Below, one piece after another: positions 3,772 to 58,852 of a stretch of DNA of 64,000 nt. The DNA lies in NCBI RefSeq assembly GCF_000756815.1, contig NZ_CCVW01000002.1, positions 238,157-302,156 on the forward strand, read 5' to 3'. The DNA comes from Legionella massiliensis. GTDB lineage: Bacteria; Pseudomonadota; Gammaproteobacteria; Legionellales; Legionellaceae. Position numbers and translations under genes: made by a program. Below the pieces are notes generated by a model, which had not been told where the DNA came from, did not search any database, and saw only the letters and a list, made by a program, of their open reading frames with translations. Positions within the stretch are counted from its first letter, which is position 1. Every line of letters begins with the position of its first letter.

Positions 3772-4045
3772 CCCCGCGGCTTGACCCATAGGTATCTATA
3801 CAAGTGTCTGTAATAGATGAGCTCTGTCCCCCTAAGGCACGTCATCCAGAGCACAGCGAAGGATCTCCTGAATGTGGCACGGTGCTAATCCCGGAGATCC
3901 TTCGCTGCGCTCTGGATGACGTAGTGTTGAAACAAGGAAGGACGTGACCTTATTACAAACACTTGTGTAGATACCTATGGGCTTGACCGCGGGGTCTATC
4001 AAGCTTTCACTACTCCCGAGGTCAAGCCGCGGGAATTCGAGTTTT
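3772..4045. repeat. Composite nested palindromic element: a type A hairpin at 3840-3920, inside a ~30-bp inverted repeat (cccataggtatctatacaagtgtctgtaat / attacaaacacttgtgtagatacctatggg), inside D-like gcggcttgaccc arms
   Basis: Read directly. Near-identical to the copy at 40793-41025. Confidence 0.85.
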
Positions 4046-4165
4046 CCTGGGATTACCTATTTTTTTCTGTGCAAAGAGCACGATTATCGCGCAAGTAGAT
4101 GCAAATGAGCTTTAAGAGAGATATATTACTGTGATTTTGCAAATCGCCAGAGCCAGGATGCTAAA

Positions 4166-5125
4166 ATGCTAAACAAACTTTCAAATTATCAACCAACTCA
4201 GCCATCCCTATGGCAAGGACGCAAAGATAGTCTGCCCGGCGAACGTTTTTTTCAACATGTTAATCTCGTCGATTTGAACAACCAATCCTTAGCAGAATCA
4301 TCGAATGCAACCATTCTCCTTGGATTTTGCAGTGACGAAGGCATACGCCGAAATGAAGGACGTATCGGTGCTAAATCAGGTCCCCTTGAATTAAGAGAGC
4401 AACTGGCAAAGCTTTCTTGTCACTCCCAGCAACAATTTATCGATCTAGGTAACATTGTTTGCGAGCACGATCTAGAAGGTGCGCAAGAGCAGTTTGCCGA
4501 ATTAATTAGTTATTGCCATCTGCAAGGATATAAAACTCTAGCCTTTGGTGGAGGACATGAAATTGCCTGGGGGCACTTTCGCGGTTTAACTTCCCATTAC
4601 CCTAAACTTGGCATCATTAATTTCGATGCTCATTTTGATTTGCGCCCTCTAAAAGATGGACGTTTTGCTACTTCAGGCACTCCTTTCCGTCAAATTTCAG
4701 AATATTGCTTGCTAAATCAACTACCTTTTGATTATTGTTGTCTCGGAATCCAGAACATTGCCAATACTCGAAGCTTATTTGACTGTGCAAAAGAACTAAA
4801 AGTTTCTTATCTGTGCACAGAACGAATCAATCAAGAAAGCTTTGCCTGGCAAACTGCGTTTCTGGATGAGTTTATGTTACGCCATGACTATATTTATCTA
4901 AGTCTTTGTCTTGATGTATTTGCCGAGTGCTTCGCACCGGGGGTCAGCGCTCCTCAAGCTACGGGTCTAACACCCTGGCAGGCCCTCCCACTGTTGAAAT
5001 ACATCCTACAAACTGGCAAAGTGGTAAGTCTTGATGTGGCTGAGCTCTCGCCTCCCTTAGATGAAGGGAAAAAAACTGTGCGATTAGCCGCAAGTCTTGT
5101 GGCAGAGTTGCTAGATTACTATTAA
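4166..5125 (+). CDS. hutG: Formimidoylglutamase (arginase/ureohydrolase family)
   Basis: 319 aa. Mn-binding motifs GGGHEIAWGH, DAHFD and SLDVAE. Placement divergent from hutI favours HutG over arginase. Confidence 0.7.
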   Translation: MLNKLSNYQPTQPSLWQGRKDSLPGERFFQHVNLVDLNNQSLAESSNATILLGFCSDEGIRRNEGRIGAKSGPLELREQLAKLSCHSQQQFIDLGNIVCEHDLEGAQEQFAELISYCHLQGYKTLAFGGGHEIAWGHFRGLTSHYPKLGIINFDAHFDLRPLKDGRFATSGTPFRQISEYCLLNQLPFDYCCLGIQNIANTRSLFDCAKELKVSYLCTERINQESFAWQTAFLDEFMLRHDYIYLSLCLDVFAECFAPGVSAPQATGLTPWQALPLLKYILQTGKVVSLDVAELSPPLDEGKKTVRLAASLVAELLDYY

Positions 5126-5142
5126 AGCAAGGAGTGTTATCG

Positions 5143-6324
5143 ATGAAAAAATCCATGCTGTATGCAGGATTAATGACTATTTTAAGTGCAACAGCGTATG
5201 CCGAAGATAGTAACAACCTCAATACTATACAAACAAATCCTGGAGCTACTAATGCTGTGCAATTAGCCATGCAACAGGGAGTACAACTAGCATCTTCTGA
5301 TGCAGTGCAAACACCCGCTAATAGCACTGTCAAAACACCTGCTAACTCTGAAACACAGCCCGCAGCAGTCAGTACACCAACTTCCGCCACCGGCGCAGCA
5401 CCAACCCCGGCTTTGGATACCTCAACAGCACCAGCAGCACCAGCAGCGACAGGTGCGACTACGACACCAGCGACGGGGGATGTTACAACGCCAGCGGCAG
5501 GTGCTGCTACGACACCAGCAGCAGGTACTGCTACGACACCAGCGGCAGGTGCTGCTACGACACCAGCGGCAGGTGCTGCTACGACACCAGCGGCAGGTGC
5601 TGCTACGACACCAGCGGCAGGTGCTGCTACGGCACCGGCAGCAGGTGCGACTACGACACCGGCAGCAGGTGCGACTACGACACCGGCAGCAGGTGCGACT
5701 TCGACACCGGCAGCAGGTGCGACTACGACACCGGCAGCAGGTGCGACTACGACACCGGCAGCAGGTGCGACTTCGACACCAGAAGCAGGTACGACTACAA
5801 CACCAGCAGCAATCAAGCCAGCCCAACCCTTGGATTGTAGCTACCGTATTCCGCCAGAAACTTCGCATATCGAACAAACTATTGTGATGAAATGGGCTGA
5901 GAAGGCTGCAGAGCAATCCTTTGATTTTGACTTCAACAACCTTGATAAACAAATTTCCCTATTAAAGTCTTGTTATACTGAGCAGGGATGGCAAGGTTTT
6001 AATGATGCCTTACAAAAATCAGGAAACATCAATGCCATTAAAACTCAGCAACTTACTGTAAGTTCGATGGTAAATGGGGAAGGCAAAATTACTGAGCTCA
6101 AAGATAACCAATGGAAAATTGCTATCCCAATGCAGGTGGTTTACCAAAATGATAAGGAAAAATTAACTCAACCGCTAACCATCAATCTGATTGTTGGACG
6201 CAAAGTCTCTGGCGACTTAGGTATTATGCAAATGATTGCTATACCTCGCCAACCAATGACCAATGCAGCTGGTGGTGAGAACCCTCAAGAGACAACTACC
6301 ACAACGACTACACAGAAGCCCTAA
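5143..6324 (+). CDS. Secreted protein with a Thr/Pro/Ala-rich tandem-repeat linker and a C-terminal IcmL/DotI-like domain
   Basis: ATG at 5143 lies 9 nt after an AAGGAG ribosome-binding site. The ORF track starts at a GTG at 5134 that overlaps that site. Signal peptide MKKSMLYAGLMTILSATAYA. About 15 copies of TTPAAGA(A/T) are encoded by 24-bp tandem repeats at 5449-5810. The C-terminal ~170 aa (GWQGFNDALQKSGNINAIK...WKIAIPMQVVY...LTINLIVGRKV...LGIMQMIAIP) match my recollection of the IcmL/DotI periplasmic domain pattern. Confidence 0.6.
   Translation: MKKSMLYAGLMTILSATAYAEDSNNLNTIQTNPGATNAVQLAMQQGVQLASSDAVQTPANSTVKTPANSETQPAAVSTPTSATGAAPTPALDTSTAPAAPAATGATTTPATGDVTTPAAGAATTPAAGTATTPAAGAATTPAAGAATTPAAGAATTPAAGAATAPAAGATTTPAAGATTTPAAGATSTPAAGATTTPAAGATTTPAAGATSTPEAGTTTTPAAIKPAQPLDCSYRIPPETSHIEQTIVMKWAEKAAEQSFDFDFNNLDKQISLLKSCYTEQGWQGFNDALQKSGNINAIKTQQLTVSSMVNGEGKITELKDNQWKIAIPMQVVYQNDKEKLTQPLTINLIVGRKVSGDLGIMQMIAIPRQPMTNAAGGENPQETTTTTTTQKP
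5449..5810 (+). repeat. Perfect 24-bp tandem repeat array, ~15 units, in two sub-families
   Basis: Repeated units gctacgacaccagcggcaggtgct and gcgactacgacaccggcagcaggt, read directly. This array produces the artefactual overlapping ORFs at 4959-5816(-), 5300-5887(+) and 5422-5952(-). Confidence 0.9.
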
Positions 6325-6379
6325 GGATTTGCATAGGTTTTGTAGTAGCTAGGCGACATCATTTATACCCCCTCATCCT

Positions 6380-6415
6380 ACCCTCTCCCCCACGCTACGC
6401 GCGGTGGAGAGGGGA
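6380..6415. repeat. Type G fragment (ctctccc...cgcgcggtggagagggg)
   Basis: A related copy lies at 8060-8095, next to a type F fragment. Confidence 0.5.
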
Positions 6416-6441
6416 TAAATGTAAGATCAAGTCTCCCACCC

Positions 6442-6515
6442 CGTCATCCTGAGCGCAGCGAAGGATCTCCGGGATTAGCACAGTTGCTACACTCAGGAGA
6501 TCCTTCGCTGCGCTC
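6442..6515. repeat. Type A palindromic mini-element (cgtcatcctgagcgcagcgaaggatctcc...ggagatccttcgctgcgctc)
   Basis: About 75-86-bp near-perfect hairpin. Copies at 3840-3920, 6442-6515, 15168-15238, 19597-19681, 28075-28147, 33234-33306, 40867-40948 and 42340-42421. Confidence 0.85.
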
Positions 6516-6659
6516 CCAAAGACGTACGTCATGTCGAACGTAGAGAGACATCTCCTGAGTGTAGCAACTGTGCTAATCCCGGAGATCCCTCACTATGTTC
6601 GGGATAACGAGGTTTTTATGGATGTTTGCCCAAAAGGGGCTGGGGCGCTCAGGATGACG
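6515..6659 (+). repeat. Type B mini-element (~131-145 bp; cccaaagacgtacgtcatgtcgaacgtagagagacatctcc...tttgccccaatggggctggggcgctc), fused to the preceding type A
   Basis: Consensus shared with 15238-15790 (x4), 16758-16900(-), 27911-28074(-), 30725-30872(-), 33095-33233(-) and 58710-58852(+). Confidence 0.85.
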
Positions 6660-6718
6660 TGCTATGTTAGGGTGACGGGGCTGACCTATTACGGATAAAT
6701 AGAAGATTACAAACCCAT

Positions 6719-7672
6719 TTAGCCAAAGTGCAGAACATAACGGATTATCCCGTTTGTACCCTGAGAATGGTTTCTCGCGCCCCGCTCAATGTATAAGTTA
6801 AAAAATACAAACTGATTTTTGGTTAAACCATAAAGCATTCCAGGACCAATGGCCCAAACCTTTTCTTCTCTCCCAGCAACACCCTGACCATTTACACGAG
6901 TATTGGTAAATTGATTAAACACATAGCTATTGATACCTAAGTGAAATTTTTCTGTAACTGCAAAATCAGTTGCAATGTTAGCAAAGACAGCTTGTCCTGC
7001 TTGTGTGGAATGCACCGTGGGACCAAAACCAGATGGATCTTTATTTTTTGCATTCCATAGATAATGCAGGCGCATAGATGCCGCCCATTTGGGTGTGATC
7101 CACAAAGTTGATGCCCAATAAGGGTTAATTGACCAGAAATTAGCGCTGGGGTTGATCGAAAATTCAGAGTCATAATGACCAATTGGCACAATGACATCAA
7201 ATTCAAAACGCTGAACAAATAAAGGACCCTGACCATTTTTACGCATAATTGGGTCAAATTGTAAGGCTGGACCTATCGTCAAATCACCAATACCATCAGC
7301 CGCTCTTAAGACGGGGTTAGGTAATCCATCATTGACCCTAGCATGTAATACTGAAGGTAGGACCGCTGAAATTCCCAGATTCGCACCTAGAACTTTCTTG
7401 GTTGATAAATAAATTAACTGCAAGATATCCGCAGTGACGCGCAGATCATTTTCCGGAAAAGGCAGCTTATTTCCATTCTTATCATTAAGTCGGTTAGCTG
7501 TGTAATACTGGAAGTAATTTTGAAAATAAAAACCCGGGCCAGATGGCGGACCACCATCCAAAAAGCTGGTATATCCGAGATTAACAACGGGTTCATCGTA
7601 AGCTAGAGCAACTGATGGTAAGGTCAGACACAGTAAGCCAGCAAAACTTGCTAATAGCTGATTCCGTTTCAT
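6719..7672 (-). CDS. Outer-membrane beta-barrel protein, possibly of the MetA-pathway/phenol-degradation-like OMP transporter family
   Basis: Start reassigned to ATG 7672, which has an AAGGA ribosome-binding site 6 nt upstream. Signal peptide MKRNQLLASFAGLLCLTLPSVALA. Gly/aromatic-rich alternating pattern. C-terminal ...RYVLHF. Confidence 0.5.
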   Translation of the reverse strand: MKRNQLLASFAGLLCLTLPSVALAYDEPVVNLGYTSFLDGGPPSGPGFYFQNYFQYYTANRLNDKNGNKLPFPENDLRVTADILQLIYLSTKKVLGANLGISAVLPSVLHARVNDGLPNPVLRAADGIGDLTIGPALQFDPIMRKNGQGPLFVQRFEFDVIVPIGHYDSEFSINPSANFWSINPYWASTLWITPKWAASMRLHYLWNAKNKDPSGFGPTVHSTQAGQAVFANIATDFAVTEKFHLGINSYVFNQFTNTRVNGQGVAGREEKVWAIGPGMLYGLTKNQFVFFNLYIERGARNHSQGTNGIIRYVLHFG

Positions 7673-7984
7673 TATTATCCTTAATATCAATCTAAGATAA
7701 GAATTCGATTATTTATCAATAGGATAATCAGTTTTATATTGGCTGGGAATAGTTTTTGTAATTATTAGGCTAACACATTCGCACTGAGTTCTGTGCGCTA
7801 GCACAGGTTCTCGAACTGATGTATCTTCACAAACTTGTAACTCAAAAAAATAGTTACTTATTAAATCATTATGCTCTTTTTTATGTCGTTCCTTCGTAGG
7901 CAGGAATAACAGGAAAATAGATCAACTTATGCGATTAACATACATTTTTTTAGTCATACATCTGAATTTCAAATTCGTGGGGAT

Positions 7985-8047
7985 ACCTCAAGTCTCGAAG
8001 CGTCGCTGCGAATAGCTTCGAGACGGCCTAAAGGCCTCCTCAGCCCG
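7985..8047 (-). repeat. Type F fragment, reverse orientation (ctcgaagc...gcttcgagacggcctaaaggcctcctcagcccgaacgg)
   Basis: Reverse complement of the 5' part of the F elements at 42162-42335 and 48590-48775. Confidence 0.7.
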
Positions 8048-8103
8048 AACGGGTAATTCACTCTCCCTCACAATGCGCGTGGTGGAGAGGAAATAAAGAC
8101 TAT

Positions 8104-13705: not shown

Positions 13706-15121
13706 ATGAAAAAAACGTTCTTATGCTTGCTGTTCGGTCTTGGTGTACCTGCCTTGTCGTTCGCAACAGACCTGATGGATATCTACCAGCAAGCGTTGGA
13801 GAACGATCCTATTTTTAAGCAAGCCTATAGCACTTACATGTCTAATACCGAAGCAGTGCCTATAGCTCGTGCTGCCTTATATCCTCAGTTGACTATCAAT
13901 GCCTTAGCTGCACGGAATGTTCAGGATGTTGCGGCATCCACTAGCAGATTAGCGACTACCTACAATTCAAACCAATGGCAGGTCAATGCTTCGCAGGCCT
14001 TATTTAACTATAAGGCCTGGGCCCAAGTGCAACGCGCCAAAGCTTCAGTTAAAGCAGCACAAGCCAGTTTTAATGATTCAGCACAAAATCTGATTTTACG
14101 CACTGCCAGCGCCTATTTTCAGGTGCTATTGGCTAAAGATACTTTGAATTTTGCTGAAGCAAAAAAGCGGGCGAACAAACGCCAGTTTGATCAGGCAGAA
14201 CAACGTTTCAAAGTGGGTTTGGATGCTATTACCTCCGTTTATGAAGCGAAAGCAGCTTATGACCAATCCGTTGCCCAGGTGATTTCGGCAAGAAATAATC
14301 AGATCAATCAAAATGAGAATTTACGTAAATTAACTAACCATGTTTACGAGCATTTATCGCCACTTAGAGACAGCCGTATTCCCTTAGTCAAACCTGAGCC
14401 TGACAATATTAATGAATGGGTGAATACCGGATTAAAGCAAAACTATAAACTTTATGCCGCCAAATATGGCCTAGAAGCGGCGCGTGAAACCATTAAAGCA
14501 CAATCTTCTGGTGCCTGGCCGACCTTTGCCCTGCAAGGGAATAGCACAACAACCCATATTCAATCGGATGTCTCAGCGTCAAATTCGGCTTCCTTTTTTG
14601 TTCCCTCACGCCAAAGTACATCTAATGTAGCTATTGCTATGAATTTTCCTGTTTTTCAGGGTGGTCTTGTGCAAGCTCAAACCAGACAGGCGCAATATAA
14701 TTTTCAAACAACTAGCGAGCAATTAGAGCAAACCTATCGCGATGTTGAGGTCAACAGCCGTATTGCTTTCAATACAATTATCGATGGTATCAGCAAGGTA
14801 AAAGCAGATAAGCAAACGATTATTTCTCAGCAAAATTCGCTTGAAAGCACCGAAGCCCAGTTTCAGGTGGGTACTCGTACGATGGTTGATGTTGTCAATG
14901 CCCAGCAACGGCTTTTCGAAGCGCAAGAACAACTTGCCAGCGATCAATACGACTTGATTAATTCCATTTTAAATTTAAAATACCTCGCCGGCACTTTGAA
15001 TGTGACTGATCTTGAAGAAATTAATGCCTGGCTGCAAACAACCCGTATTGCCAACTTCCCTCCTGAAACCTCAGCAGTTTCTGCTAAGCGTATTGCTGTT
15101 CGTAAAAAGCAAGGTAAGTAG
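13706..15121 (+). CDS. tolC: TolC-family outer-membrane efflux/secretion channel
   Basis: Start taken at ATG 13706 (MKKTFLCLLFGLGVPALSFA signal peptide). Two repeated OEP halves. Start of the mature protein DLMDIYQQALENDPIFKQA matches the typical TolC N-terminus. Confidence 0.8.
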   Translation: MKKTFLCLLFGLGVPALSFATDLMDIYQQALENDPIFKQAYSTYMSNTEAVPIARAALYPQLTINALAARNVQDVAASTSRLATTYNSNQWQVNASQALFNYKAWAQVQRAKASVKAAQASFNDSAQNLILRTASAYFQVLLAKDTLNFAEAKKRANKRQFDQAEQRFKVGLDAITSVYEAKAAYDQSVAQVISARNNQINQNENLRKLTNHVYEHLSPLRDSRIPLVKPEPDNINEWVNTGLKQNYKLYAAKYGLEAARETIKAQSSGAWPTFALQGNSTTTHIQSDVSASNSASFFVPSRQSTSNVAIAMNFPVFQGGLVQAQTRQAQYNFQTTSEQLEQTYRDVEVNSRIAFNTIIDGISKVKADKQTIISQQNSLESTEAQFQVGTRTMVDVVNAQQRLFEAQEQLASDQYDLINSILNLKYLAGTLNVTDLEEINAWLQTTRIANFPPETSAVSAKRIAVRKKQGK

Positions 15122-15167
15122 TGATACAATTGAGTCCAAGTTTGTAAGTAATAGGGCACTCCCCTTC

Positions 15168-15238
15168 CGTCATCCTGAGCGTAGCGAAGAGCTCCTGAAT
15201 GTGACAGAGTGCTAACCCCGGAGATCCTTCGCTACGCT
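15168..15238. repeat. Type A palindromic mini-element
   Basis: Immediately followed by the type B tandem array. Confidence 0.8.
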
Positions 15239-15790
15239 CCCAAAGGCGTACGTCATGTCGAACGTAGAGAGACATCTCCTGAATATGGCAGATGCTAGTC
15301 CCGGAGATCCCCCACTACGTTCGGGATGACGGGATCTTTATCGATGTTTGCCCCAATGGGGCTGGGGCGCTCCCAAAGGCGTACGTCATGTCGAACATAG
15401 AGAGACATCTCCTGAATGTGGCAGATGCTAGTCCCGGAGATCCCCCACTAAGTTCGGGATGACGGGATCTTTATCGATGTTTGCCCCAATGGGGCTGAGG
15501 CGCTCCCAAAGGCGTACGTCATGTCGAACGTAGAGAGGCATCTCCTGAATGTGGCAGATGTTAGTCCCGGAGATCCCTCACTACGTTCGGGATGACAGGG
15601 TCTTTATCGATGTTTGCCCCAATGGGGCTGAGGCGCTCCCAAAGGCGTACGTCATGTCGAACGTAGTGAGACATCTCCTGAATATGGCAGATGCTAGTCC
15701 CGGAGATCCCCCACTATGTTCGGGATGACGGGATCTTTATCGATGTTTGCCCCTAAGGGGCTAGGACACTCTGGATGACGTGCTATGTTA
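15238..15790 (+). repeat. Tandem array of about 4.2 type B units with a ~132-bp period, filling the tolC-ttcA intergenic region
   Basis: Unit starts (ctcccaaaggcgtacgtcatg) at about 15238, 15371, 15503 and 15635. Units are 90-95% identical to each other. The array ends with ...ggctaggacactctggatgacg. Confidence 0.9.
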
Positions 15791-15833
15791 GGGTAATTAC
15801 AGTTCCATTTCATATTTAATTTAGGTTTTTATT

Positions 15834-16679
15834 ATGTCTACAAACCCCACTATTGTTGAAAAAAAATTATTACATTACACCGGCAAAGCCATTTCTGATT
15901 TTAATATGATTCAGCGTGGTGATCGGGTGATGGTGTGTCTATCTGGCGGTAAAGATTCTTTTAGTTTGCTTACCCTATTGCATACCCTACGTCGCCGCTC
16001 AAATAATAAATTTGATATTTTTGCTTTTACCCTTGATCAGGCGCAACCCGGTTGGGATGATAGTAAATTACGTGCCTGGCTCGATGAGAAAGCTATTCCT
16101 CATGAGATCTTAACTCGAGATACCTATTCCATCGTTAAAGAGAAAATTCCAGAAGGCAAAACGTATTGCTCGCTCTGTTCGCGTCTAAGACGAGGTATTA
16201 TCTATCGCTACGCAGAAGAAAATGGCTTCACAAAAATTGCCCTGGGGCACCATCGCGATGATTTAATACGCACCTTAATGATGTCTATTTTGTATAACGG
16301 GGATATCCGTTCGATGCCGCCTAAGCTATTAAGCGACAATAAGAAACACATCGTTATACGTCCCTTATGTTATGTTCAGGAACGAGACATTATTAAATTT
16401 GCTGAAGAACAGGCTTATCCGATCATTCCCTGTACTCTATGTGGTTCCCAGGAGAACCTTGCGCGCAAACGGATTGGTAAATTAATCGATCAACTTGCCG
16501 AAGAAAATCCTAAGGTTCCGTCCAATATTCTACATGCTTTGCAAAGCATCAAGCCGAGCCAATTGATGGACCAGGATCTATGGCAGTTTAAAAATCTTGA
16601 AAGCCAACTGCTCAATCCAATGCTGGATAATGGAGAATCTGTCATTGGTGAGGAAGAGCTGGAAGTTATTGAAGACTAG
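15834..16679 (+). CDS. ttcA: tRNA 2-thiocytidine(32) synthetase
   Basis: 281 aa. PP-loop motif CLSGGKDS. Cys motifs [10 protein letters not shown] and CTLCGSQ. Family-typical length. Confidence 0.85.
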
Positions 16680-16757
16680 CTTTGAGATCCCGCGGTCAAG
16701 CCGTGGGATTTCGGAACGATTAGGACTGTAGATTATTCTCATCACCTTCACATAGCC

Positions 16758-16900
16758 CCTCACCCTGAGCGCCCCAGCCCCTTTTGGGCAAACATCGATA
16801 AAGACCCCGTCATCCCGAACATAGTGAGGGATCTCCGGGACTAGCATCTGCCACATTCAGGAGATGTCTCTCTGCGTTCGACATGACGTACGTCTTTGGG
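16758..16900 (-). repeat. Type B mini-element in reverse orientation, plus a D-like half-site at 16681-16705
   Basis: Reverse complement of the B consensus (gagcgccccagcccc...caaacatcgataaagacccc...cgtctttggg). Confidence 0.8.
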
Positions 16901-16946
16901 AGCACAACGAAGAATCTCCCAGGTGCTCTTCCTTATATATCATCGA

Positions 16947-17035
16947 ATCCCCTTAACTGCCTTATCCCCTCAGGAGCGAAGGGAAAAAGCGGGGGTTCTC
17001 CCTTCCACGGGACGGATGAGAGCTCCTAAAACTGC
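16947..17035. repeat. Type H-related GC-rich hairpin element (cccctcaggagcgaagggaaaaagcggggg...ttccacgggacggatgag)
   Basis: Related to 54667-54773 and 50897-50945. Confidence 0.55.
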
Positions 17036-17248
17036 CTCACCTTGAAGTTAGGCTTGCCCAAACACATGGGTCTCGCAATCAATCCAGTTTTATACAATAA
17101 TATTTACACTCTGAATAATTGCTTTACACCTTGGCCCGTATGGATTTACATAAAAGTTAAGAAATATTTCTTTCTTGTAAAGATTCACAAAGTATTTAAC
17201 CTGGGTTACTATTGCTTCACCTCTAGCCGTTGCAAAAAAAAAATCATC

Positions 17249-19567
17249 ATGACTGAAGCATTAAATTCTGGTTTTCGTAGGCTCCGTGTTTATCAATCAC
17301 GCCATTTAAAGTTTGATTTCGTCGCAGGTATCGTAGTCTTTCTGGTGGCAATTCCCCTCTGTCTTGGGATTGCGCTAGCCTCTGGCGCCCCCCTATTCTC
17401 AGGTATCCTAAGCGGAATCATCGGTGGTGTAATCGTTGGCTCCCTAAGCGGCTCGCAGGTGAGTGTAAGCGGGCCGGCTGCTGGGATGGCTGCTGTAGTT
17501 CTCGCTGCAATTGCACAGCTTGGCGACTTTAATACCTTTCTTCTGGCTCTGGTGCTTGCTGGCTGTTTGCAAGTTATCATTGGAAGCCTTCGAGCTGGCT
17601 TCATTGCAGAATATATTCCGTCCAATGTCGTCCAAGGCCTGCTCTGCGCGATTGGAATTCTGTTAATTATCAAGCAACTTCCTCTTGCCTTTACCCTCTC
17701 TACTGATCTTAAAGAATTGAAAGTTCATCTCTTAGAATCAACAGAGAGTCTTGCCTTTAACCCCCTTTATCACATGCATGAACATATTAATCGTGGCGCT
17801 TCGATTATTTCGTTGATCTCCTTTGCTATTTTAATTTTCTCCGAGAAAACAAAGATAAAATGGCTGAAGGGAATTCCGGCACCTATTATTGTTGTTATTG
17901 CTGGTATTGTTATTAATGAAATCTTCCTGATGACAGAATCCTCTTTTGCTCAGGCTTATCCTCATTTAGTTAATATCCCTGAACACAATGGCTTTTCAGA
18001 TTTACTTGGGCAATTGCAATATCCCAGTTGGTCCGCCTGGTCTAATCCTAAAGTTTATCTTTATGCCTTTATTATTGCGATTGTGGCTTCATTAGAGAGC
18101 TTGTTAAATGTCAAAGCCGGTGAAAAACTTGACAGTAAACATCGCTATTGCTCTAAAGATCAGGAATTAATTGCTCAGGGTGTTGGTAACCTAGCGGCTG
18201 GTTTAATCGGTGGAATACCAGTGACTTCAGTTATCGTAAGAACCTCCGTTAATATCCAAGCTGGCTCAAAATCTAAATTTTCTACTATCTTACACGGCAT
18301 ATTTCTTTTTCTAGCTGTATTGCTAATTGAGCAATGGCTTAACAAAATACCGCTGTCTTCCTTAGCAGCCATCTTGATTTTTACGGGTTATAAACTGACA
18401 AAACCGTCTATTTACCGCGCTATCTATGAGCAAGGTATGGATAGATTTATTCCCTTCGTTGCTACAGTAGTTAGTATTGTTATCTTTAATCTGTTGATAG
18501 GGATTCTCATCGGATTAGCGATTAGCCTGTTTTTTATTTTGAAATCCAACTCAACTGCACGTTTTGATATCATTAAAGAGATTTATCCAACTGGCGAGGC
18601 TAGTCGCCTGGTCTTACCCCAGCAGATCACCTTTTTAAACAAAGCCTCACTCATTGCGGAGCTAAGTTCTATCCCGAGAAATTCTCAGTTGATTATTGAT
18701 GCGCGCTATTCAAACTATATCGATAAGGAAATCTGTGAATTAATTAAGGAATTTCAGCAAGAACAAGCGCCATTAAAACAAATTTCCCTAAATCTTATTG
18801 GTTTTAAAGAGCATTATGATATTCATAATTATATTGATTTCATTAATGTAACTACCTTTGACGTGCAGGCCAACCTATCACCCCAGCAGGTGTTGAGTAT
18901 CCTGTTAGAAGGAAATCAACGTTTTCTCAATGATACACGTATTCATCGCACCACAAAGATTGACATCAAATATACAGCTGAAACCCAACATCCCATAGCG
19001 GTTGTCTTGGGTTGTATCGATTCTCGAGTACCTGTTGAAACCGTCTTTGATATGAGTTTTGGCGATCTCTTTTGTGTGCGTGTAGCAGGTAATGTCGTCA
19101 ATGAAGACATCCTGGCCAGTATTGAATATGCCTGCCACGTTGCTGGTGCGAAATTGATTGTTGTTCTTGGTCATACCCGCTGCGGAGCAATACAGGCAAG
19201 CTGTGATCATGTTGAAAAGGGCCATATAACCCAGTTGCTAGCTAAGATTAAACCGGCAATCGCAGCAGAAACTGAAATAACCAGCGATCGAAGTTCGAAG
19301 AATACCGAGTTTGTAACGCGGGTAACAGAACTTAATATCGCCAATACCTTGCAACAAATTTATCACGACTCTGAGATTCTAAAATTGATGATTGATCAGG
19401 AAAATATTGGGCTGGTCGGCGCACTCTATGATGTAAGAACAGGGCAAGTTTCCTTTAAAGACTATACCCCTGCGCTAAAAAGCCTAGAGCATGAAACTGA
19501 TAATCATCTTAGAGAGAAAATACAGAAGGTCTTGGGTGCGGCTAATCTGGGAACGGTAATTGGTTAG
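17249..19567 (+). CDS. SulP-family anion (bicarbonate/sulfate) transporter fused to a C-terminal beta-carbonic anhydrase
   Basis: Start reassigned to ATG 17249 (MTEALNSGFRRLRVY...). The ORF track's 17042 start adds 69 non-conserved codons that run through an AT-rich promoter-like region. SulP transmembrane core and STAS-like region. C-terminal beta-CA zinc motifs CIDSRVP and HTRCGAI. Confidence 0.8.
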   Translation: MTEALNSGFRRLRVYQSRHLKFDFVAGIVVFLVAIPLCLGIALASGAPLFSGILSGIIGGVIVGSLSGSQVSVSGPAAGMAAVVLAAIAQLGDFNTFLLALVLAGCLQVIIGSLRAGFIAEYIPSNVVQGLLCAIGILLIIKQLPLAFTLSTDLKELKVHLLESTESLAFNPLYHMHEHINRGASIISLISFAILIFSEKTKIKWLKGIPAPIIVVIAGIVINEIFLMTESSFAQAYPHLVNIPEHNGFSDLLGQLQYPSWSAWSNPKVYLYAFIIAIVASLESLLNVKAGEKLDSKHRYCSKDQELIAQGVGNLAAGLIGGIPVTSVIVRTSVNIQAGSKSKFSTILHGIFLFLAVLLIEQWLNKIPLSSLAAILIFTGYKLTKPSIYRAIYEQGMDRFIPFVATVVSIVIFNLLIGILIGLAISLFFILKSNSTARFDIIKEIYPTGEASRLVLPQQITFLNKASLIAELSSIPRNSQLIIDARYSNYIDKEICELIKEFQQEQAPLKQISLNLIGFKEHYDIHNYIDFINVTTFDVQANLSPQQVLSILLEGNQRFLNDTRIHRTTKIDIKYTAETQHPIAVVLGCIDSRVPVETVFDMSFGDLFCVRVAGNVVNEDILASIEYACHVAGAKLIVVLGHTRCGAIQASCDHVEKGHITQLLAKIKPAIAAETEITSDRSSKNTEFVTRVTELNIANTLQQIYHDSEILKLMIDQENIGLVGALYDVRTGQVSFKDYTPALKSLEHETDNHLREKIQKVLGAANLGTVIG

Positions 19568-19596
19568 AAATTCTTCACTCTGAGCCCAAACATTAC

Positions 19597-30130: not shown

Positions 30131-30679
30131 ATGTTTAAAAAGATAGCCTTAGTTGCAATGATGCTCCTGACAAGCCTGGCACAAGCCGCAGCCCTTTATC
30201 AAATTGATCTTATAGTCTTTGGCTATCAACAGTCCCCTATTTCGCCAGAATTATCTCTAAGCTCTACCCTGGCATCCCACTCAGCAAATAGTATTCCCCT
30301 GCAAACAGAAATCAGTAAAAACCAGACCCCCTACCACCTTCTCCCCTCTTCATCCTCGCAGTTACAAGAGGAATATTGGGCACTACATCGCAAACCCCAG
30401 TACCGGGTCTTAATACATTACACCTGGTTACAACCCTTTAATAACCAGAGCGCGATTGCGATCCCTAAGGTTCAACGTGATGGTTGGGAAATAGAGGGCA
30501 CCGTCCGCGTTCAACGTAGCAATTACTATTCCCTAGATTCAGAATTGTTAATTTCCACACCCAGCTCCAACTCAGCCCCCTTTGTCTTGGTACAACAGCA
30601 ACGCTTAAAGGGTGGTGATATTTATTATTTGGATCATCCACAGGCAGGGATGTTGATTAAAGTGCATCAGGTTGGTTAG
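30131..30679 (+). CDS. Secreted hypothetical protein
   Basis: 182 aa. Signal peptide MFKKIALVAMMLLTSLAQAAA. No recognised domain. Confidence 0.45.
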   Translation: MFKKIALVAMMLLTSLAQAAALYQIDLIVFGYQQSPISPELSLSSTLASHSANSIPLQTEISKNQTPYHLLPSSSSQLQEEYWALHRKPQYRVLIHYTWLQPFNNQSAIAIPKVQRDGWEIEGTVRVQRSNYYSLDSELLISTPSSNSAPFVLVQQQRLKGGDIYYLDHPQAGMLIKVHQVG

Positions 30680-30724
30680 GTAATTACCTGGCGTACCCTA
30701 CCATGCTGGGCAGTCACTCCCCTT

Positions 30725-30872
30725 CCGTCATTCTGAGCGCCCCAGACCCTTTGGGGGGCAAACATCGATAAAGACCTCGTCATCCCGAACATAGTGAGGG
30801 ATCTCCGGGATTAGCACAGTGCCACATTCAGGAGATGTCTCTCTACGTTCGACATGACGTACGTCTTTGGGA
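30725..30872 (-). repeat. Type B mini-element, reverse orientation
   Basis: ccgtcattctgagcgccccagaccctttggggggcaaacatcgataaagacctcgtcatcccgaacatagtgagggatctccggg...cgtctttggg. Confidence 0.85.
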
Positions 30873-30953
30873 GCGATAGGAACCATTTATTTTTGATTTT
30901 ATAAATTTTTTATCATAAATTGATTACTCGCATCTCAGATATAAGAAGTAGTT

Positions 30954-33047: not shown

Positions 33048-33094
33048 GAGCCCATCTACTCTGGGTAATGAACTACATTCGTAAGGTTGCCCCT

Positions 33095-33306
33095 CGTCAC
33101 GTCATCCTGAGCGCTCCAGCCCCTTTGGGGCAAACATCGATAAAGACCTCGTCATCCCAGGGATCTCTGGGATTAGCACAGCGCTACACTTAGGAGATGT
33201 CTCTCTACGTTCGACATGACGTACGTCTTTGGGAGTGCAGCGAAGGATTTCTTGAATATAGCACAGTGCCAATCCTGGAGATCCTTCGCTGCGCTCAGGA
33301 TGACGG
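33095..33306 (-). repeat. Type B (reverse orientation, internally deleted) fused to type A (33234-33306)
   Basis: Read directly. The B copy lacks ~25 bp relative to the consensus. Confidence 0.8.
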
Positions 33307-33354
33307 GCTATGTTAGAGTGACGAGGTGACCTATTACCTACTTTCTAAGATCCC

Positions 33355-34242
33355 TCACAGCCTTGGCTGCACAATCGAACTAATAAGCCCCGCCATCGCC
33401 TTCAAACAAAGATCTTTTGCGCTACCCGGCCGCCAATAAAGAGCGATCGAGCGCGATGGGGCTGGCTTAGCAAAGGGGATCACCAATAAATTGCTGCTCT
33501 CAGCCTCTTGTAGAGCCAGAGCAGGTAAAAGTGTAACTCCGACACCTGCTTGCACCATCCATCTTAAAGTTTCAAGGCTCGTTGCTGTGAAATCGGCGCG
33601 AACCTCTGCCTTTGCCAATTGGCATACAGCCATTGCCTGCTCTCGTAAACAATGGCCTTCCTCCAAAAGCATCACTGGTTGATTAGCCAATTCATCAACC
33701 TTTAATTCTTTTTTATTCCTCATCAGGGAGTCATTGGCAGCAGCAAAATAAAAAGGCTCTTCAAAAAGAATTAGATGCTTAAAATCACCATCAACTGGCG
33801 TCGCCATTAAAGCCGCGTCCAATTGACCTGCGGCCAGTTTTTCGCTTAGCCGCTGCGTTTTATCCTCATAAAGCCAGACTCGGATTTTTGGAAAAGCACT
33901 TTGTATCTCTGTCATTATCAAAGGAAGCAGATAGGGGGCTAAGGTAGGGATTAGGCCTAGCCTTAACTCCCCTGCATAGGGATCTGAGGATGCCCTGGCA
34001 AACTCTTTCATCTCAGCGACCTGAGTTAAAATTTGCTGGGCTCGACCCACCAAAGCCTTTCCGGCGTCAGTTAACATCACCTGTTTATTATTCCGCTCGA
34101 AAAGAGGCAAACCAAGCTCTTCCTCAAGCTTTTTAATCTGCATAGAGAGTGTAGGTTGGCTTACATGACAGCGCTTGGCTGCTTCACCAAAGTGCATTAG
34201 TTCCGCAAGAATAACAAAATAGTGCAAATCGCGTAGATTCAT
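33355..34242 (-). CDS. oxyR: Hydrogen peroxide-inducible genes activator OxyR (LysR family)
   Basis: Start reassigned to ATG 34242 (MNLRDLHYFVILAELMHFGEAAKRCHVSQPTLSMQIKKLEEELG...), collinear with the E. coli OxyR N-terminus. A Cys residue is present in the regulatory domain. Confidence 0.75.
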   Translation of the reverse strand: MNLRDLHYFVILAELMHFGEAAKRCHVSQPTLSMQIKKLEEELGLPLFERNNKQVMLTDAGKALVGRAQQILTQVAEMKEFARASSDPYAGELRLGLIPTLAPYLLPLIMTEIQSAFPKIRVWLYEDKTQRLSEKLAAGQLDAALMATPVDGDFKHLILFEEPFYFAAANDSLMRNKKELKVDELANQPVMLLEEGHCLREQAMAVCQLAKAEVRADFTATSLETLRWMVQAGVGVTLLPALALQEAESSNLLVIPFAKPAPSRSIALYWRPGSAKDLCLKAMAGLISSIVQPRL

Positions 34243-34297
34243 TTTTTTCCCTATAAAACTTTGCATCAGCCCGCACAATCTCGTATAGTCGCGCTTT

Positions 34298-35545
34298 TTG
34301 CCAGAAACTAGATCAATGATAGCAGCAATTAGTATTCCTGAATTAAATGCCAGAAGGCGAACTGGTATTTGGCTTATCGGCGTATCCTTTGTATTGTTCC
34401 AATTTTTCTTACAATTGTCATCTGGGGTAATTATCGGCTCAATCATGAATGAGATGGGGCTGACAGCCTTTCAGGCAGGGATTATTAGTAGCGCTTTTTA
34501 TTATGTTTATACCAGCATGCAAATTCCCGTAGGTATGCTTTTCGATAGAAAAAGCACTCGCTCTTTGCTTGCAATTAGTGCCCTAGTCTGTAGTTTTGGA
34601 TGTGTTTATTTTGCACAAAGCCATAGCCTTAACCACTTATTTATCGGACGACTAATAATTGGCGCCGGCTCAGCCTTTGCCTTTGTTGGTCTATCACATT
34701 TGTTAAGACAGCATTTTCCCTTAAAACAATTTGGCTTTTTGATTGGCCTTTCAGAAACTCTGGGCTTTCTTGTCGCGATGTTTGGCCTGATATCAATGGG
34801 TTCTTTACTCAATGAGATAAGTTGGCGAACCTTCCATAATGGTGCTGCTCTATTAGGCCTTATTATTAGCTTTTTTTGCTGGCTCTATATTCCTGAAAAC
34901 AGCCCGTCTTCCCAATCAACAACAAGGCAGGGCAAGCAAGTTTTAAGCATTTTAACCAACACCAAGGCTTGGATTAACGGCTTATTTGCCGGTTTAAGCT
35001 TTAGCGTGATTACGGTATTCGGCGCAATGTGGGCAGTCCCCTTTATCCAGGCAAAACTGGGTTGTAGCTTGCAAGAAGCGAGCTGGGTTGATGCAATGAT
35101 TTTCCTCGGTACAGCCCTTAGCTGCCCGCTATTCGGTAAATTAGCTATCTTTTTCAAGCGCCGCAGACCAATGCTTCTGACCTCCTGCCTATCAACAGCC
35201 TTCTTGCTGTTGGCTCTACTGTATTTACCTATTCATCGTTCGGACTTATTAGGCCTCATAATGTTTGCTATTGGTCTTTGTTGTGGCGCCTATATGCTCG
35301 CCTATAGCATAGCTAATGAATTATCGCCCCCCGATTCCTTGTCAACCTGCGCGGGATTTACCAATACCTTAGCCATGCTAACAGCACCGCTGATACAGCC
35401 CTTGATTGGGTATTTATTAGATCTCTTCAGTGATTCCAAGCAGGTCTACAGTCTAAGTAATTACCAAGATGCTCTGGTAATTATTCCTATCGCCTTGTTT
35501 ATTGCCAGCGGACTTGTGTTCTTTTTACCGGAGAAGCAATGCTAA
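34298..35545 (+). CDS. MFS transporter
   Basis: 415 aa, about 12 predicted transmembrane segments. MFS loop motif GMLFDRKSTR between TM2 and TM3. Confidence 0.75.
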   Translation: MPETRSMIAAISIPELNARRRTGIWLIGVSFVLFQFFLQLSSGVIIGSIMNEMGLTAFQAGIISSAFYYVYTSMQIPVGMLFDRKSTRSLLAISALVCSFGCVYFAQSHSLNHLFIGRLIIGAGSAFAFVGLSHLLRQHFPLKQFGFLIGLSETLGFLVAMFGLISMGSLLNEISWRTFHNGAALLGLIISFFCWLYIPENSPSSQSTTRQGKQVLSILTNTKAWINGLFAGLSFSVITVFGAMWAVPFIQAKLGCSLQEASWVDAMIFLGTALSCPLFGKLAIFFKRRRPMLLTSCLSTAFLLLALLYLPIHRSDLLGLIMFAIGLCCGAYMLAYSIANELSPPDSLSTCAGFTNTLAMLTAPLIQPLIGYLLDLFSDSKQVYSLSNYQDALVIIPIALFIASGLVFFLPEKQC

Positions 35546-35584
35546 TTTTTTCATTATAACTAAGGTCAGCCTCCGCTCTACTAT

Positions 35585-35672
35585 TGAATTCCCGCAGCTT
35601 GACCGTAGGATCCGCTGGTTATAAGCTCTTCACTCTGAGCCCGATCCCTCGGTCAAGCCGCGGGAATTCGGG
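35585..35672. repeat. Type D element, plus a shared ttcactctgagccc module
   Basis: gaattcccgcagcttgaccg...cggtcaagccgcgggaattcg. The ttcactctgagccc module also occurs next to the A copy at 19575. Confidence 0.8.
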
Positions 35673-36821: not shown

Positions 36822-36909
36822 TTTGTCATTCCCGCGAAGGCGGGAAACCATCTCTACATTGGCACTGTGCTTAACTAGAAATAGTTTCCCGCCTTCGCGA
36901 GAATGACAA
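36822..36909. repeat. Type E hairpin: 26-bp arms ttgtcattcccgcgaaggcgggaaac / gtttcccgccttcgcgagaatgacaa with a ~36-nt loop, between convergent genes
   Basis: Read directly. Single copy in this window. Possible bidirectional terminator. Confidence 0.7.
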
Positions 36910-36953
36910 TCGGAAAACCTTGATTACGCTGCACTGCATCAAGGCTACTTTTG

Positions 36954-54635: not shown

Positions 54636-54666
54636 GGGGTTTCTGGTAAAGAACTTCCAATCGAGC

Positions 54667-54773
54667 CCCCTCATCCGCCCTTCAGGCACCTTCTCCCCTG
54701 AGGGGCAAAGGGAAAAATCGGGATTCTCCCTTCTCCCTTTCGGGGAGAAGGTGCCCGGAGGGCGGATGAGGGT
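54667..54773. terminator. Type H GC-rich 107-bp hairpin (ccctcatccgcccttcaggcaccttctcccc...ggggagaaggtgcccggagggcggatgaggg) followed by tttctgcc. Probable terminator between the liu and polyamine operons.
   Basis: Read directly. Related sequences at 16947-17035 and 50897-50945. Confidence 0.5.
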
Positions 54774-54914
54774 TTCTGCCTTCGAAATGATAAGAACGTA
54801 GGCTGAGCTGATAAGCTCATCAAAAAAGGTTTTTTTTGAAACACAACGAAAATATAATACCCAAGTTGACTAAACTATTTTATTATACCTAATTTTTAAA
54901 AGACGAGGCTGTAG

Positions 54915-57676: not shown

Positions 57677-57678
57677 CA

Positions 57679-58695
57679 ATGAATACACCCAAACAAGCTG
57701 GATACCGCATGCCACCTGAATGGCATCCACATGCCGGATGCTGGATGGCTTGGCCCTGCCATAAAGAAAGCTGGGCTGAAATTGGTTTTGAACGCGCACG
57801 CATTGCCTATGCCCGCGTTGCTAATGCGATTGCCCAATATGAGCCTGTTACACTCTTAGTTAATCCTGGTGATGAAGAATCAGCAAAACGCTTATGTGGT
57901 GAAAAAATTCGCCTGATTAGCCTGCCTATCAACGATTCATGGACACGTGATACCGGCCCTACTTTTTTGTTGAATGACAAACAGGAGCTGGCTGGTGTTG
58001 ACTGGATCCACAACGCCTGGGGTGGAAATTATGCTGACTGCGCACTCGATAATGAAATCGCCAGCGCTGTAATTCGTGATACAGAGGCTCGTCATTTCAA
58101 GGCACCGCTAGTTATGGAAGGCGGTTCTTTTCATGTTGACGGTGAAGGGACTGTATTGACCAGCAAAGAGTGTCTGCTAAATGCTAACCGCAATCCCCAA
58201 TTAAGCCAAAAGGAGATTGAGGATTACCTCTACAATTATCTCGGCACTGAAAAAATCATCTGGTTAAACAAGGGACTAGTTGGTGATGAAACCGATGGAC
58301 ACATTGACGAAATCGCTTGCTTTATCGCACCGGGCAAGGTGCTAGCCTTAATTACCCACGATAAAAATGATGTCAATTACCCTATCTTGCATGAGAATCT
58401 GGAGATACTAAAGTCAGCAACCGATGCCAAAGGCAGGCCTCTGGAAGTATTTACAGTAGAGCAACCTCCGGCCACCTATCTTGGGGAGGAGCGTCTGACC
58501 TTATCCTACATCAATTTTTATCTGGCAAATCAAGGCATTGTAATGCCTGCTTTTGGCTATGAAAAAGAAGACAAAGCGGCTTATGAGCTTTTCTGTCAGC
58601 TATTCCCCAATTATCATATTAGTCAAATCGATGCTTTAGATGTTTTTGCTGGCGGTGGCGGGATTCATTGTATTACTCAGCAACAGCCTGGTTGA
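57679..58695 (+). CDS. aguA: Agmatine deiminase
   Basis: 338 aa. Guanidino-modifying fold. C-terminal catalytic Cys in the [12 protein letters not shown] motif. Confidence 0.85.
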
Positions 58696-58709
58696 TTTGT
58701 TGTTCCTAC

Positions 58710-58852
58710 TCCCAAAGACGTACGTCATGTCGAACGTAGAGAGACATCTCCTGAATGTGGCACTGTGCTAATCCCGGAGATCCCTCACTATGTTCGGGAT
58801 GACGAGGTCTTTATCGATGTTTACCTAAAAGGGGCTGGGACGCTCAGGATGA
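58710..58852 (+). repeat. Type B mini-element, forward orientation
   Basis: cccaaagacgtacgtcatgtcgaacgtagagagacatctcctgaatgtggcactgtgctaatcccggagatccctcactatgttcgggatgacg...gggctgggacgctcaggatgac. Confidence 0.85.

Follow-up and report, generated by a model that had tools for sequence, protein, structure and literature searches.

We analyzed a 64,000-nucleotide stretch of the Legionella massiliensis genome (assembly GCF_000756815.1, contig NZ_CCVW01000002.1, positions 238,157 to 302,156), referred to here as the window, in which the intergenic DNA is packed with palindromic elements that a preliminary description had grouped into families A to H. The elements form a dense and genuine mosaic, which is of a known class and consists in large part of insertion sequence (IS) ends. 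We consider it likely that families A, B and G are doublets of the CGTC-tagged repetitive extragenic palindromes (CGTC REPs), the hairpin class also covered by the Ssn-related motif (SRM), and that A and B are the two ends of an IS66-family transposon carrying a GIY-YIG gene, ssn (the IS66-ssn element), which were joined to each other, moved by the transposase TnpC and then reshuffled. The link between GIY-YIG proteins and CGTC REPs is already published (PMC11893778). What appears to be new, and undescribed so far, is the Legionella context, in which a bulged arm is missed by the published motif and the hairpins are packaged together with ssn in an IS66-family transposon. Legionella, IS66 and Coxiella are unmentioned in the Ssn paper (PMC11893778), and the literature search returned no work linking IS66 with GIY-YIG in this sense and, among the matches listed, no other Ssn paper.

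CGTC REPs have a CGTC, TGTC or CCTC head, a stem of 8-9 bp starting with AT, a loop of 4-5 nt and a CCA tail, occur mostly as dimers placed between convergent or same-direction genes, include dRS3 of Neisseria and RPE-4 and RPE-6 of Rickettsia, and have been reported in Coxiella (PMC3733652). They "apparently lack a dedicated transposase" (Di Nocera, De Gregorio & Rocco 2013, PMC3733652). The GIY-YIG family associated with such repeats was named Ssn by Chenal et al. in 2025, who defined the SRM and showed an effect of Ssn on natural transformation (PMC11893778). In Neisseria meningitidis, SsnA binds the NTS hairpin only as single-stranded DNA and cuts a few nucleotides upstream, and binding and cutting in Neisseria require the C directly behind the palindrome as well as the bases immediately in front of it (PMC11893778). 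Hundreds of intergenic copies of the repeat can be present per genome, and the manner of their multiplication was left open (PMC11893778).

In families A, B and G of the window, one and the same unit occurs as an inverted doublet whose heads face outward. Each unit has an unpaired CGTC (or TGTC) head, a hairpin stem starting with AT and a C-rich tail. A pattern search for arm, spacer of 23-25 nt and inverted arm returned 16 regular doublets, to which two degenerate doublets and the G doublet are added. The arms of A and B run in the order CGTC, AT, short internal region, AT and CTCC. The arm of family A (CGTCATCCTGAGCGCAGCGAAGGATCTCC) reads CGTC-ATCCT-GAGCGCAGCGA-AGGAT-CTCC, the left arm of B reads CGTC-ATGTC-GAACGTAGAGA-GACAT-CTCC, and the right arm of B reads CGTC-ATCCC-GAACATAGTGA-GGGAT-CTCC; the differences among these three arm types are compensatory within one arm. 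The kinship of B with A that the preliminary description had noticed is real: the spacer and the ATCTCC/GGAGAT flanks are common to both, and the arms differ. Its statement that the families match none known does not hold, because the layout of the arms is in the main the one that defines the CGTC-tagged REP superfamily (PMC3733652). The Rickettsia RPE-4 and RPE-6 and the Neisseria dRS3, which are members of that superfamily, are among the systems that had been named for comparison or are close relatives of these.

The likeness to CGTC REPs (PMC3733652) covers the CGTC/TGTC head, the AT-starting stem, the short C-rich tail, the inverted dimers, the location between convergent or same-direction genes and the presence of several variant families per genome. 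The G arms are textbook CGTC-1, with a continuous 8-bp stem, a GAAG loop and a CCA tail. The A and B arms, in contrast, have a bulged stem (5 bp, a tandem G-A/A-G mismatch, then 2 bp) and a 3-nt loop, where the class has 8-9 continuous base pairs and 4-5 nt, and they end in CTCC instead of the consensus CCA. The 2013 paper, for its part, includes neither an associated transposase nor Legionella (PMC3733652).

The hairpin of the unit is supported by covariation. The structure ....(((((..((...))..))))).... was tested on a set of 75 distinct 29-nt arms, taken from the window and from loci related to it. Pairing was found in 94.3% of the cells versus 80.9% in shuffles, none of the 500 shuffles reaching the observed value, and the covariation score was 0.448 versus 0.199 in shuffles, with five of the seven pairs varying on both sides. 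When the partners were slid by 1-3 columns as a control, only 10-48% of the cells paired. The first two pairs, at positions fixed by the selection pattern, are A-T and T-A in 73-75 of the 75 arms. G2 and T3 do not vary among the arms, and conservation of C4 reaches at least 90%; C26 together with the GTC at positions 2-4 is invariant or at least 90% conserved. Strict units number 22 in the window (20 intergenic and 2 genic), whereas mononucleotide shuffles of the whole window give about 6 each. As single-stranded DNA, the doublets of A (-34 to -39.6 kcal/mol, z -9.6 to -11.3), G (-30.5 kcal/mol, z -10.6) and E (-37.9 kcal/mol, z -10.7) fold very stably; the values are -22.3 kcal/mol and z -5.5 for B, and only z -3.3 for F. 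The composite element at 6421-6692, folded as RNA, reaches -150 kcal/mol (z -12.6).

The published SRM search motif (HGTCWYN(0-2)YYVSBRHN(0-5)WNVSBRGN(0-2)RNCYNB; PMC11893778) matches the window twice, against 0.17 expected, and both matches are the G arms at 36824-36851 and 36881-36908. The first of these arms has at most 3 mismatches in 28 positions to the Neisseria NTS consensus. The Legionella Ssn protein, in turn, is 45% identical (E 2e-30) to the protein of an NTS-flanked locus of N. gonorrhoeae, which we take to be ssnA, the gene of a site-specific single-stranded DNA nuclease. The ssn homologues of N. gonorrhoeae, S. meliloti, A. lipoferum and N. aromaticivorans are each flanked by the CGTC or CCTC REPs of their own species, and among stand-alone metagenomic homologues a REP lies beside the gene in 25 of 52, about 12-fold over the distant flanks. 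Distant ssn homologues that are free of tnpC (52-74% identical) likewise have inverted CGTC REPs on their flanks, heads outward. One such homologue, on plasmid AZO_p3 of A. lipoferum 4B (L153, 254906-256390), is bordered left and right by REP dimers and is found within an otherwise conserved operon, between sufB and sufC.

Shared with the Ssn/NTS/SRM system (PMC11893778) are a single-domain GIY-YIG gene of 94-96 aa, inverted hairpins flanking it with their heads outward, and the conserved C after the palindrome and GTC before it. Different in Legionella are the position of the gene, inside an IS66-family element and downstream of a DDE transposase, the repeats, which lie within terminal inverted repeats of 50-70 bp with GTAA tips and 8-bp duplications, and the A and B arms, which fall outside the published motif.

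The IS66-ssn element was found through the repeat. The 22-mer GAAGGATCTCCTGAATGTGGCA, which spans arm and spacer, occurs in at least 56 stretches in a collection of the genomes of 185,579 species; the stretches listed are nearly all from Legionella or Legionellaceae, and the remaining ones are metagenome-assembled genomes (MAGs) labelled Gammaproteobacteria or Proteobacteria. At several of these loci, the arm and the inverted arm enclose hundreds of bases of cargo in place of the 24-nt spacer. The cargo contains an open reading frame (ORF) for a GIY-YIG protein of 96-105 aa (PF01541, E about 1e-16; 3.5e-16). This protein has more than 3600 close homologue clusters, mainly on contigs of 0.5-2 kb, which is what a repeat at which assemblies break would lead to. 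Directly upstream of the GIY-YIG gene, on the same strand, lies a gene for an IS66-family transposase, whose homologues have 464 aa and are found mainly on contigs of about 2 kb.

Ends starting with GTAA and an 8-bp target duplication are hallmarks of the IS66 family. An intact element of 1913 bp at L066 (1378-3290) has both, with the order GTAACTCCCCAGGTACGTCATCCAGAGCGCGTCTTTTTGCGCGAAGGATCTCCTGAATGTGACAT, tnpC, ssn and an inverted copy of the end, matching inverted repeats and the 8-bp target duplication AAAACTGA. Its TnpC contains PF03050 and zf-IS66 and scores 286 bits against the NCBIfam IS66 model. The element of about 1.9 kb codes for a 464-aa DDE transposase (TnpC) followed directly by a 96-aa Ssn homologue, has GTAA tips and makes 8-bp target duplications, and the A-type arm together with TGAATGTGGCA forms the inner part of its 50-70 bp terminal inverted repeats. 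The tnpC-ssn pair is also present in L067-L070 and in most of the close relatives among L071-L098, and it is kept down to about 62-66% TnpC identity. Neither tnpA nor tnpB was seen in the Legionella element, which has a single tnpC only. Searched with the DNA of the element, the plasmid collection yielded only distant IS66 transposases of cyanobacteria. In L067 (CALOEG010000129.1), long poly-C and poly-T runs stand in place of the terminal repeats (1410-1435 and 3270-3375), probably an assembly or polishing artefact at the hairpins. In L024, a decayed IS66-ssn element is broken by another palindromic miniature inverted-repeat transposable element (MITE; ATATACCCTTTACGGATGAGTTTTAGG...). The idea that the IS66 piece in L024 was junk inserted into a GIY-YIG element was ruled out by the intact tnpC-ssn copies.

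The element has left a series of deletion derivatives. Copies that have lost tnpC and kept ssn intact measure 635-643 bp and have 8-bp duplications (L042 and L065); a similar ssn-intact copy with the same ends, in L034, has no scorable GTAA tips or duplication. A 374-bp remnant is present in L009. MITEs of 121-126 bp in L019, L020 and L046 have full tips and perfect 8-bp duplications and are two ends of an L068-type element joined together. In all, perfect 8-bp duplications were found in L009, L019, L020, L042, L046, L065 and L066, and A-type arms lie on both sides of ssn, heads outward, in L034, L042, L065 and L066.

The window repeats tie in with this series. The window A arm differs in 1 of 29 bases from the arm inside the inverted repeats of L068, the left half of the spacer (TGAATGTGGCA) is the inner left end of L042, and arm and TGAATGTGGCA together have their counterpart in the inverted repeats of L042, L066 and L068. 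An element of the window type would be expected to carry the right-end variant GTGCTAATCCCGGAGATCC beside the stop codon of ssn. A blind scan of the window for GTA...TAC pairs with matching flanking 8-mers returned five pairs, no excess over the mean of 4.6 in block shuffles, and two of the five span repeat elements, 6421-6692 and 33081-33337. Since both of these duplicated elements are A+B composites, the composite has moved as a unit. The first has the tips GTAAGATC... and ...CCTATTAC and a perfect 8-bp duplication, GGATAAAT, at 6413-6420 and 6693-6700; inside it, an A doublet (6442-6524, reverse strand) and a B doublet (6527-6609, forward strand) have their CGTC heads 2 nt apart. The second (reverse strand) has the tips GTAAGGTT... 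and ...CCTATTAC and the 8-bp duplication CTACATTC/CTACTTTC at 33073-33080 and 33338-33345, identical in seven of eight positions, and contains an A doublet at 33224-33305 and a partly deleted B doublet.

In a third composite, 27899-28155 (reverse strand), a B doublet (27982-28062) and an A doublet (28065-28146) have both spacers in the same direction. Its decayed tip, TTAATAGG, supplies the TAA stop codon (27900-27902) of a 1428-aa ORF (23616-27902), so the insertion sets the present C-terminus of that protein, which matches no NCBIfam family. These three sites are those at which A had been reported to pair with B. The preliminary description had regarded the whole as a modular system of its own and had named derivation from one known IS as the finding that would speak against this. 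Independence is now partly refuted: A and B are in part fragments of one IS, being fused inner ends of the IS66-ssn inverted repeats.

That the elements were rearranged after insertion is evident, and the mechanisms we infer from the sequence patterns. In the composites, the A and B heads are 2 nt apart and the tip-like CTCCCAAAGACGTA of B replaces the outer part of the A arm; B may have entered the A arm via a 4- or 6-bp repeat at GCGC/GCGCTC, or by recombination. Two composites have the A spacer inverted relative to the neighboring B, and in the third both point the same way (6442-6524, 28065-28146 and 33224-33305), a flip-flop to be expected from recombination between inverted arms or from template switching during copying of the hairpin. 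The outer end modules of 6421-6692 stand in swapped positions in 33081-33337, and the outer 15-30 nt of the window tips have diverged. Tandem arrays with a period of roughly 105-195 bp occur at other Legionella loci also. At the ends, the outer half-arm is often repeated in degenerate form, two to five such "stutter" copies following one another about every 18-25 bp, as in L034 (five copies, 4712-4800), L136 (four copies, downstream of the gene), many MFD02248 loci and the window at 6660-6680; no mechanism considered in the analysis accounts for them. What had been set apart as a separate ttcactctgagccc module is in fact one of these degenerate outer half-arms (compare GTCATCCTGAGCGC).

It thus appears that the A and B doublets would have formed by deletion of the interior and joining of two IS66-ssn ends, and that the derivatives would have been moved in trans by TnpC from a full-length copy elsewhere. 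Later reshuffling would have included insertion or recombination of elements into one another's arms, inversion of spacers, tandem amplification of a 133-bp unit and the stutter copies of outer half-arms. By analogy with Neisseria, each copy is a predicted site at which Ssn binds and cuts single-stranded DNA: the arm has retained the hairpin and the adjoining bases on which Ssn depends, so every copy would be an Ssn site. In a naturally transformable genus, such sites could conceivably limit the recombination of incoming DNA. A further proposal, about which we are doubtful, is that Ssn is a working part of the IS66-family transposon, in a two-enzyme system of transposition or maintenance for which the doublets are non-autonomous substrates. 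The Ssn hairpin lies 11-15 nt inside each tip, on the strand with its 5' end at the tip, and one may speculate that, whenever either end is single-stranded, its 5' (non-transferred) strand would be cut by Ssn.

Several observations weigh against joined IS66-ssn ends as the source of the doublets or against the class assignment of the arms. The window contains no full-length element, tnpC or ssn within its 64 kb. The right half of the spacer, GTGCTAATCCC, is in none of the fetched loci. Clean tips and duplications belong to only 2 of about 20 window elements, the solo A doublets (19598 and 42340) and the solo B units having neither, and the outer tips of the composites differ from the GTAACTCCCCA tips of the characterized elements. 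The published SRM motif misses the A and B arms. The pattern by which the 75 arms were selected fixed the first two and the last two stem positions, that is, the two outermost pairs. Finally, a single arm folds at -2.7 kcal/mol with z about 0, no better than shuffles, so it is the covariation that carries the hairpin; the tandem G-A mismatch inside the arm earns no reward from nearest-neighbor parameters.

The spread of the hairpins could instead have been driven by Ssn without a DDE transposase, as hairpin-ssn-hairpin units that copy themselves in the manner of REP-associated tyrosine transposases (RAYTs) and REPINs, the breaks made by Ssn in single-stranded DNA and their repair by the host multiplying the doublets, and IS66 being captured secondarily. 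The ssn homologues of 52-74% identity with no tnpC nearby and with inverted CGTC REPs on their flanks fit such a course, as do the tnpC-free unit between sufB and sufC of A. lipoferum and the several window doublets that lack both IS tips and target duplications. The stutter half-arms of 18-25 bp would suit repeated breakage and repair near the head, and an IS-like architecture was remarked on in the Ssn paper (PMC11893778). Nevertheless, Ssn has been shown as a nuclease only, strand transfer or ligation by it not being known, every cleanly bounded Legionella copy has IS66-type tips and an 8-bp duplication, and no empty-site evidence for insertion independent of a transposase was found; we therefore judge this course unlikely. 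Very unlikely, in our view, is an origin as regulatory hairpins evolved by the host, such as terminators, stabilizers of mRNA 3' ends or RNase III sites kept for expression. Their placement would agree with it, all six convergent gaps and most tandem gaps being occupied and divergent gaps rarely, with several elements starting 3-35 nt from a stop codon, and the doublets would form very stable RNA hairpins. However, target duplications and transposon tips mark the elements as inserted, an insertion sequence has these very units at its ends, in 15000-34999 neither a following T-run nor a terminator score was found for any A or B doublet, and a downstream placement is equally expected if selection removes insertions elsewhere.

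The least credible source is a RAYT, that is, an IS200-like tyrosine transposase, which would make the elements classical REP/BIMEs (bacterial interspersed mosaic elements). Intergenic doublets of imperfect palindromes do resemble REPINs, a RAYT gene is present in a related Legionella (L024, 2292-2945, PF01797), and a separate GTAG-headed REP family exists within the window. But the heads of the A, B and G arms are CGTC and not GTAG, the repeat on the flanks of the L024 RAYT is another one (GTAGGGTGGACA...TGTCCACC), the window has no RAYT, and CGTC repeats are reported to flank no tyrosine transposase gene (PMC3733652), so that for A, B and G this source is already contradicted. A phmmer search with an E. 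coli RAYT query found only the L024 gene, and RAYT was rejected as the mobilizer since the flanking repeat of that gene is of GTAG type and different. The L024 gene, in a Legionella MAG, has its own repeats, GTAGGGTGGACAAAGGAGCAAAGCGACGTGTCCACC, at 2230-2290 and 2860-3130.

Among other known systems, IS66-family elements and IS-derived MITEs share with the IS66-ssn element the DDE_Tnp_IS66 and zf-IS66 domains, the GTAA ends, the 8-bp duplication and internal deletions that keep the ends. The Legionella element differs in its single tnpC, in the GIY-YIG gene that replaces the other accessory genes and in unusually long inverted repeats, each of which holds a hairpin predicted to bind a protein. 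Neisseria intergenic mosaic elements (NIMEs) consist of RS segments bounded by dRS3. The fetched N. gonorrhoeae ssn locus lies in a NIME-type array, and NIMEs, like the window elements, are intergenic mosaics with variable modules between CGTC-class hairpins; their spacers and modules are unrelated, and transposon tips and target duplications set the Legionella mosaics apart. Coxiella burnetii QMITE2 (Wachter et al. 2018, PMC5896051), compared by description only, also has a Legionellales host, a size of 150-190 bp, direct repeats of 7-11 bp, a REP core, truncated REP-only copies and sites in 3' untranslated regions or between genes, but it was described with a GTAG REP and as a target of IS1111 (PMC5896051). 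RAYT/REPIN systems (Bertels & Rainey 2011; Nunvar 2010) share the small nuclease gene between its own repeats and the dispersed doublets, and differ in having an HUH tyrosine transposase and not a GIY-YIG protein, a GTAG head and no target duplications. The end of the Correia element of Neisseria, TATAGYGGATTAACAAAAAYCGG, has no match in the window with up to 3 mismatches.

The mobilizing agent behind the spread of CGTC REPs and SRMs has been an open question since 2013. The deletion series from a 1.9-kb element to 120-bp MITEs with duplications offers a concrete and testable route by which CGTC REPs could spread and, if Ssn is indeed part of the transposon, the element would be the first demonstrable vehicle for the spread of CGTC REPs and SRMs. 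It also adds a naturally transformable pathogen genus in which the effect of Ssn and its repeats on recombination, as reported in Neisseria, can be considered. For annotation, the elements explain breaks in Legionella assemblies, and the tip of a repeat can provide the stop codon of a gene. An exact look-up of the EttA protein of the window had no match, and that of its acetoacetate-CoA ligase matched only a contig of 4551 bp (L057, Logan SRR32963951), which ends near the repeats at about 58.8 and 63.3 kb and thereby suggests that the elements fragment assemblies.

The saturation of intergenic DNA with repeats in the window is borne out by self-BLAST. With a gene map built from long ORFs, dispersed repeats cover 3708 of 9290 intergenic bases (40%) against 653 of 54710 genic bases (1.2%), and every genic case is a repeat internal to one single gene. 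Repeat finding returned 27 dispersed direct-repeat families in the window, and with up to 3 mismatches allowed, 15 copies of the core GGATCTCCTGAATGTGGCA are present where 0.01 is expected. Of the gaps longer than 100 bp, 20 of 25 hold a repeated segment, and three of the five empty ones are divergent. All six convergent gaps are occupied, and of five divergent (promoter-side) gaps two are occupied and three empty; several elements begin 3-35 nt from a stop codon. The genes of the window are an ordinary housekeeping set; its SpeA has 100% identity to that of L. massiliensis. No transposase, RAYT or GIY-YIG gene is encoded among them, and tblastn with TnpC, Ssn and RAYT gave no match below E=1 in the 64 kb. 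Comparison with Rfam, which had been proposed at the outset, gave no match in the window at gathering thresholds, and no tRNA or tmRNA either. In these respects the preliminary description, which had seen a REP/BIME-like mosaic of hairpin elements confined to intergenic DNA, built of chimeric relatives and devoid of a transposase or RAYT gene, has proved accurate, the chimeric relation being evident in shared modules and composites.

Apart from the composites, A and B occur in several settings. A degenerate A doublet (15167-15248, forward strand) runs into a B tandem array (15235-15797, forward strand) with a 133-bp period and four copies in family D2; its doublets, at 15251-15331, 15384-15464, 15517-15597 and 15650-15730, belong to units that abut without a target duplication between them. 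The solo A doublet element at 19589-19692 (forward strand; doublet 19598-19679, -39.6 kcal/mol, z -11.3) keeps its right sub-end ...GGGGTGCTATTAC, lacks a left tip, has a degenerate half-arm, TTCACTCTGAGCCC, upstream, and fills a convergent gap, stopping 3 nt short of the stop codon of its neighbor. B units are located at 16741-16919 (reverse strand; doublet 16808-16888 plus a remnant of an A arm), 30723-30883 (reverse strand, solo; doublet 30778-30859) and 58702-58857 (forward strand, solo; doublet 58723-58804, -22.3 kcal/mol, z -5.5). The G doublet at 36822-36912 has the arms TGTCATTCCCGCGAAGGCGGGAAACCA, at 36824-36851 (forward) and 36881-36908 (reverse), in the canonical CGTC-1/SRM form, and its spacer has TGGCACTGTGCT in common with family A (-30.5 kcal/mol, z -10.6).

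Family D is a separate MITE that makes a 9-bp duplication and targets the loops of E hairpins. Its arms surround A, as had been noticed, at 3787-3979 and 40812-41006. The first copy, 193 bp long and MITE-like with 23-nt inverted ends (CATAGGTATCTAYACAAGTGT...), contains an A doublet and GTAAT...TTATTAC sub-ends and sits in an E hairpin loop between 9-bp direct repeats, GGCTTGACC, at 3778-3786 and 3980-3988. The A doublet inside (3840-3921, forward strand) has two inverted CGTC-tagged arms and the 24-nt spacer TGAATGTGGCACGGTGCTAATCCC (-34 kcal/mol, z -9.6). The second copy, with an A doublet at 40867-40948 (forward strand), sits in an E hairpin of the opposite orientation between the 9-bp direct repeats GGTCAAGCC/GGTCAAGAC at 40803-40811 and 41007-41015. 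Two insertions into E loops, one for each orientation of the hairpin, point to a second transposase that prefers this loop. A truncated left end of D lies within a split E hairpin at 63212-63252.

E hairpins have the CTTGA/TCAAG loop typical of CGTC-class REPs, but a different, variant head. Single ones are found at 4008-4040 (CCCGAGG-TCAAG-CCGCGGG type), 16682-16714 and 23527-23558, and doublets at 35582-35671 (two inverted E hairpins followed by the sub-end ...GGGGTGATCTATTAC) and 48837-48917 (-37.9 kcal/mol, z -10.7). In a terminator scan of 20 kb (15000-34999), only the E hairpin at 23535-23555, within the element at 23527-23558, scored as intrinsic terminator-like, and none of the A or B doublets did. 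F elements are located at 42154-42315 and 48583-48788, with a fragment in reverse orientation at 7982-8052. The first has the palindrome CGTCTCGAAGC...GCTTCGAGACG (z -3.3) and a tail, TTTGCCCCAAAGGGGCTGG, that is shared with B (family D8), as the preliminary description had it; an A doublet (42340-42421, reverse strand) adjoins it, so that A beside F is likewise confirmed within 42154-42421. The H element at 54645-54733 has a CCCTCATCC... head, with related pieces at 6370-6415 and 16960-17005, and H may be a CCTC-tagged variant of the CGTC class, because a CCTC variant is described in PMC3733652 and is present beside the S. meliloti ssn.

GTAG-headed palindromes of the RAYT-type REP class (GTAGCCTTGATGCAGTGCAGCGTAATCAAGG, GTAGCCTGGATGCAGCGAA...) lie at 21641-21669, 36915-36948, 63338-63367 and 63377-63405, and this family may imply a RAYT gene elsewhere in the genome. 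A 36-nt repeat in two copies (AAAATCTTGGAGAAAGTTCAATT..., 45229-45264 and 61271-61305) bears no relation to the hairpin families. Within the ORF at 5134-6324, some 20 tandem units of 24 bp (5369-5859) would encode an 8-residue protein repeat.

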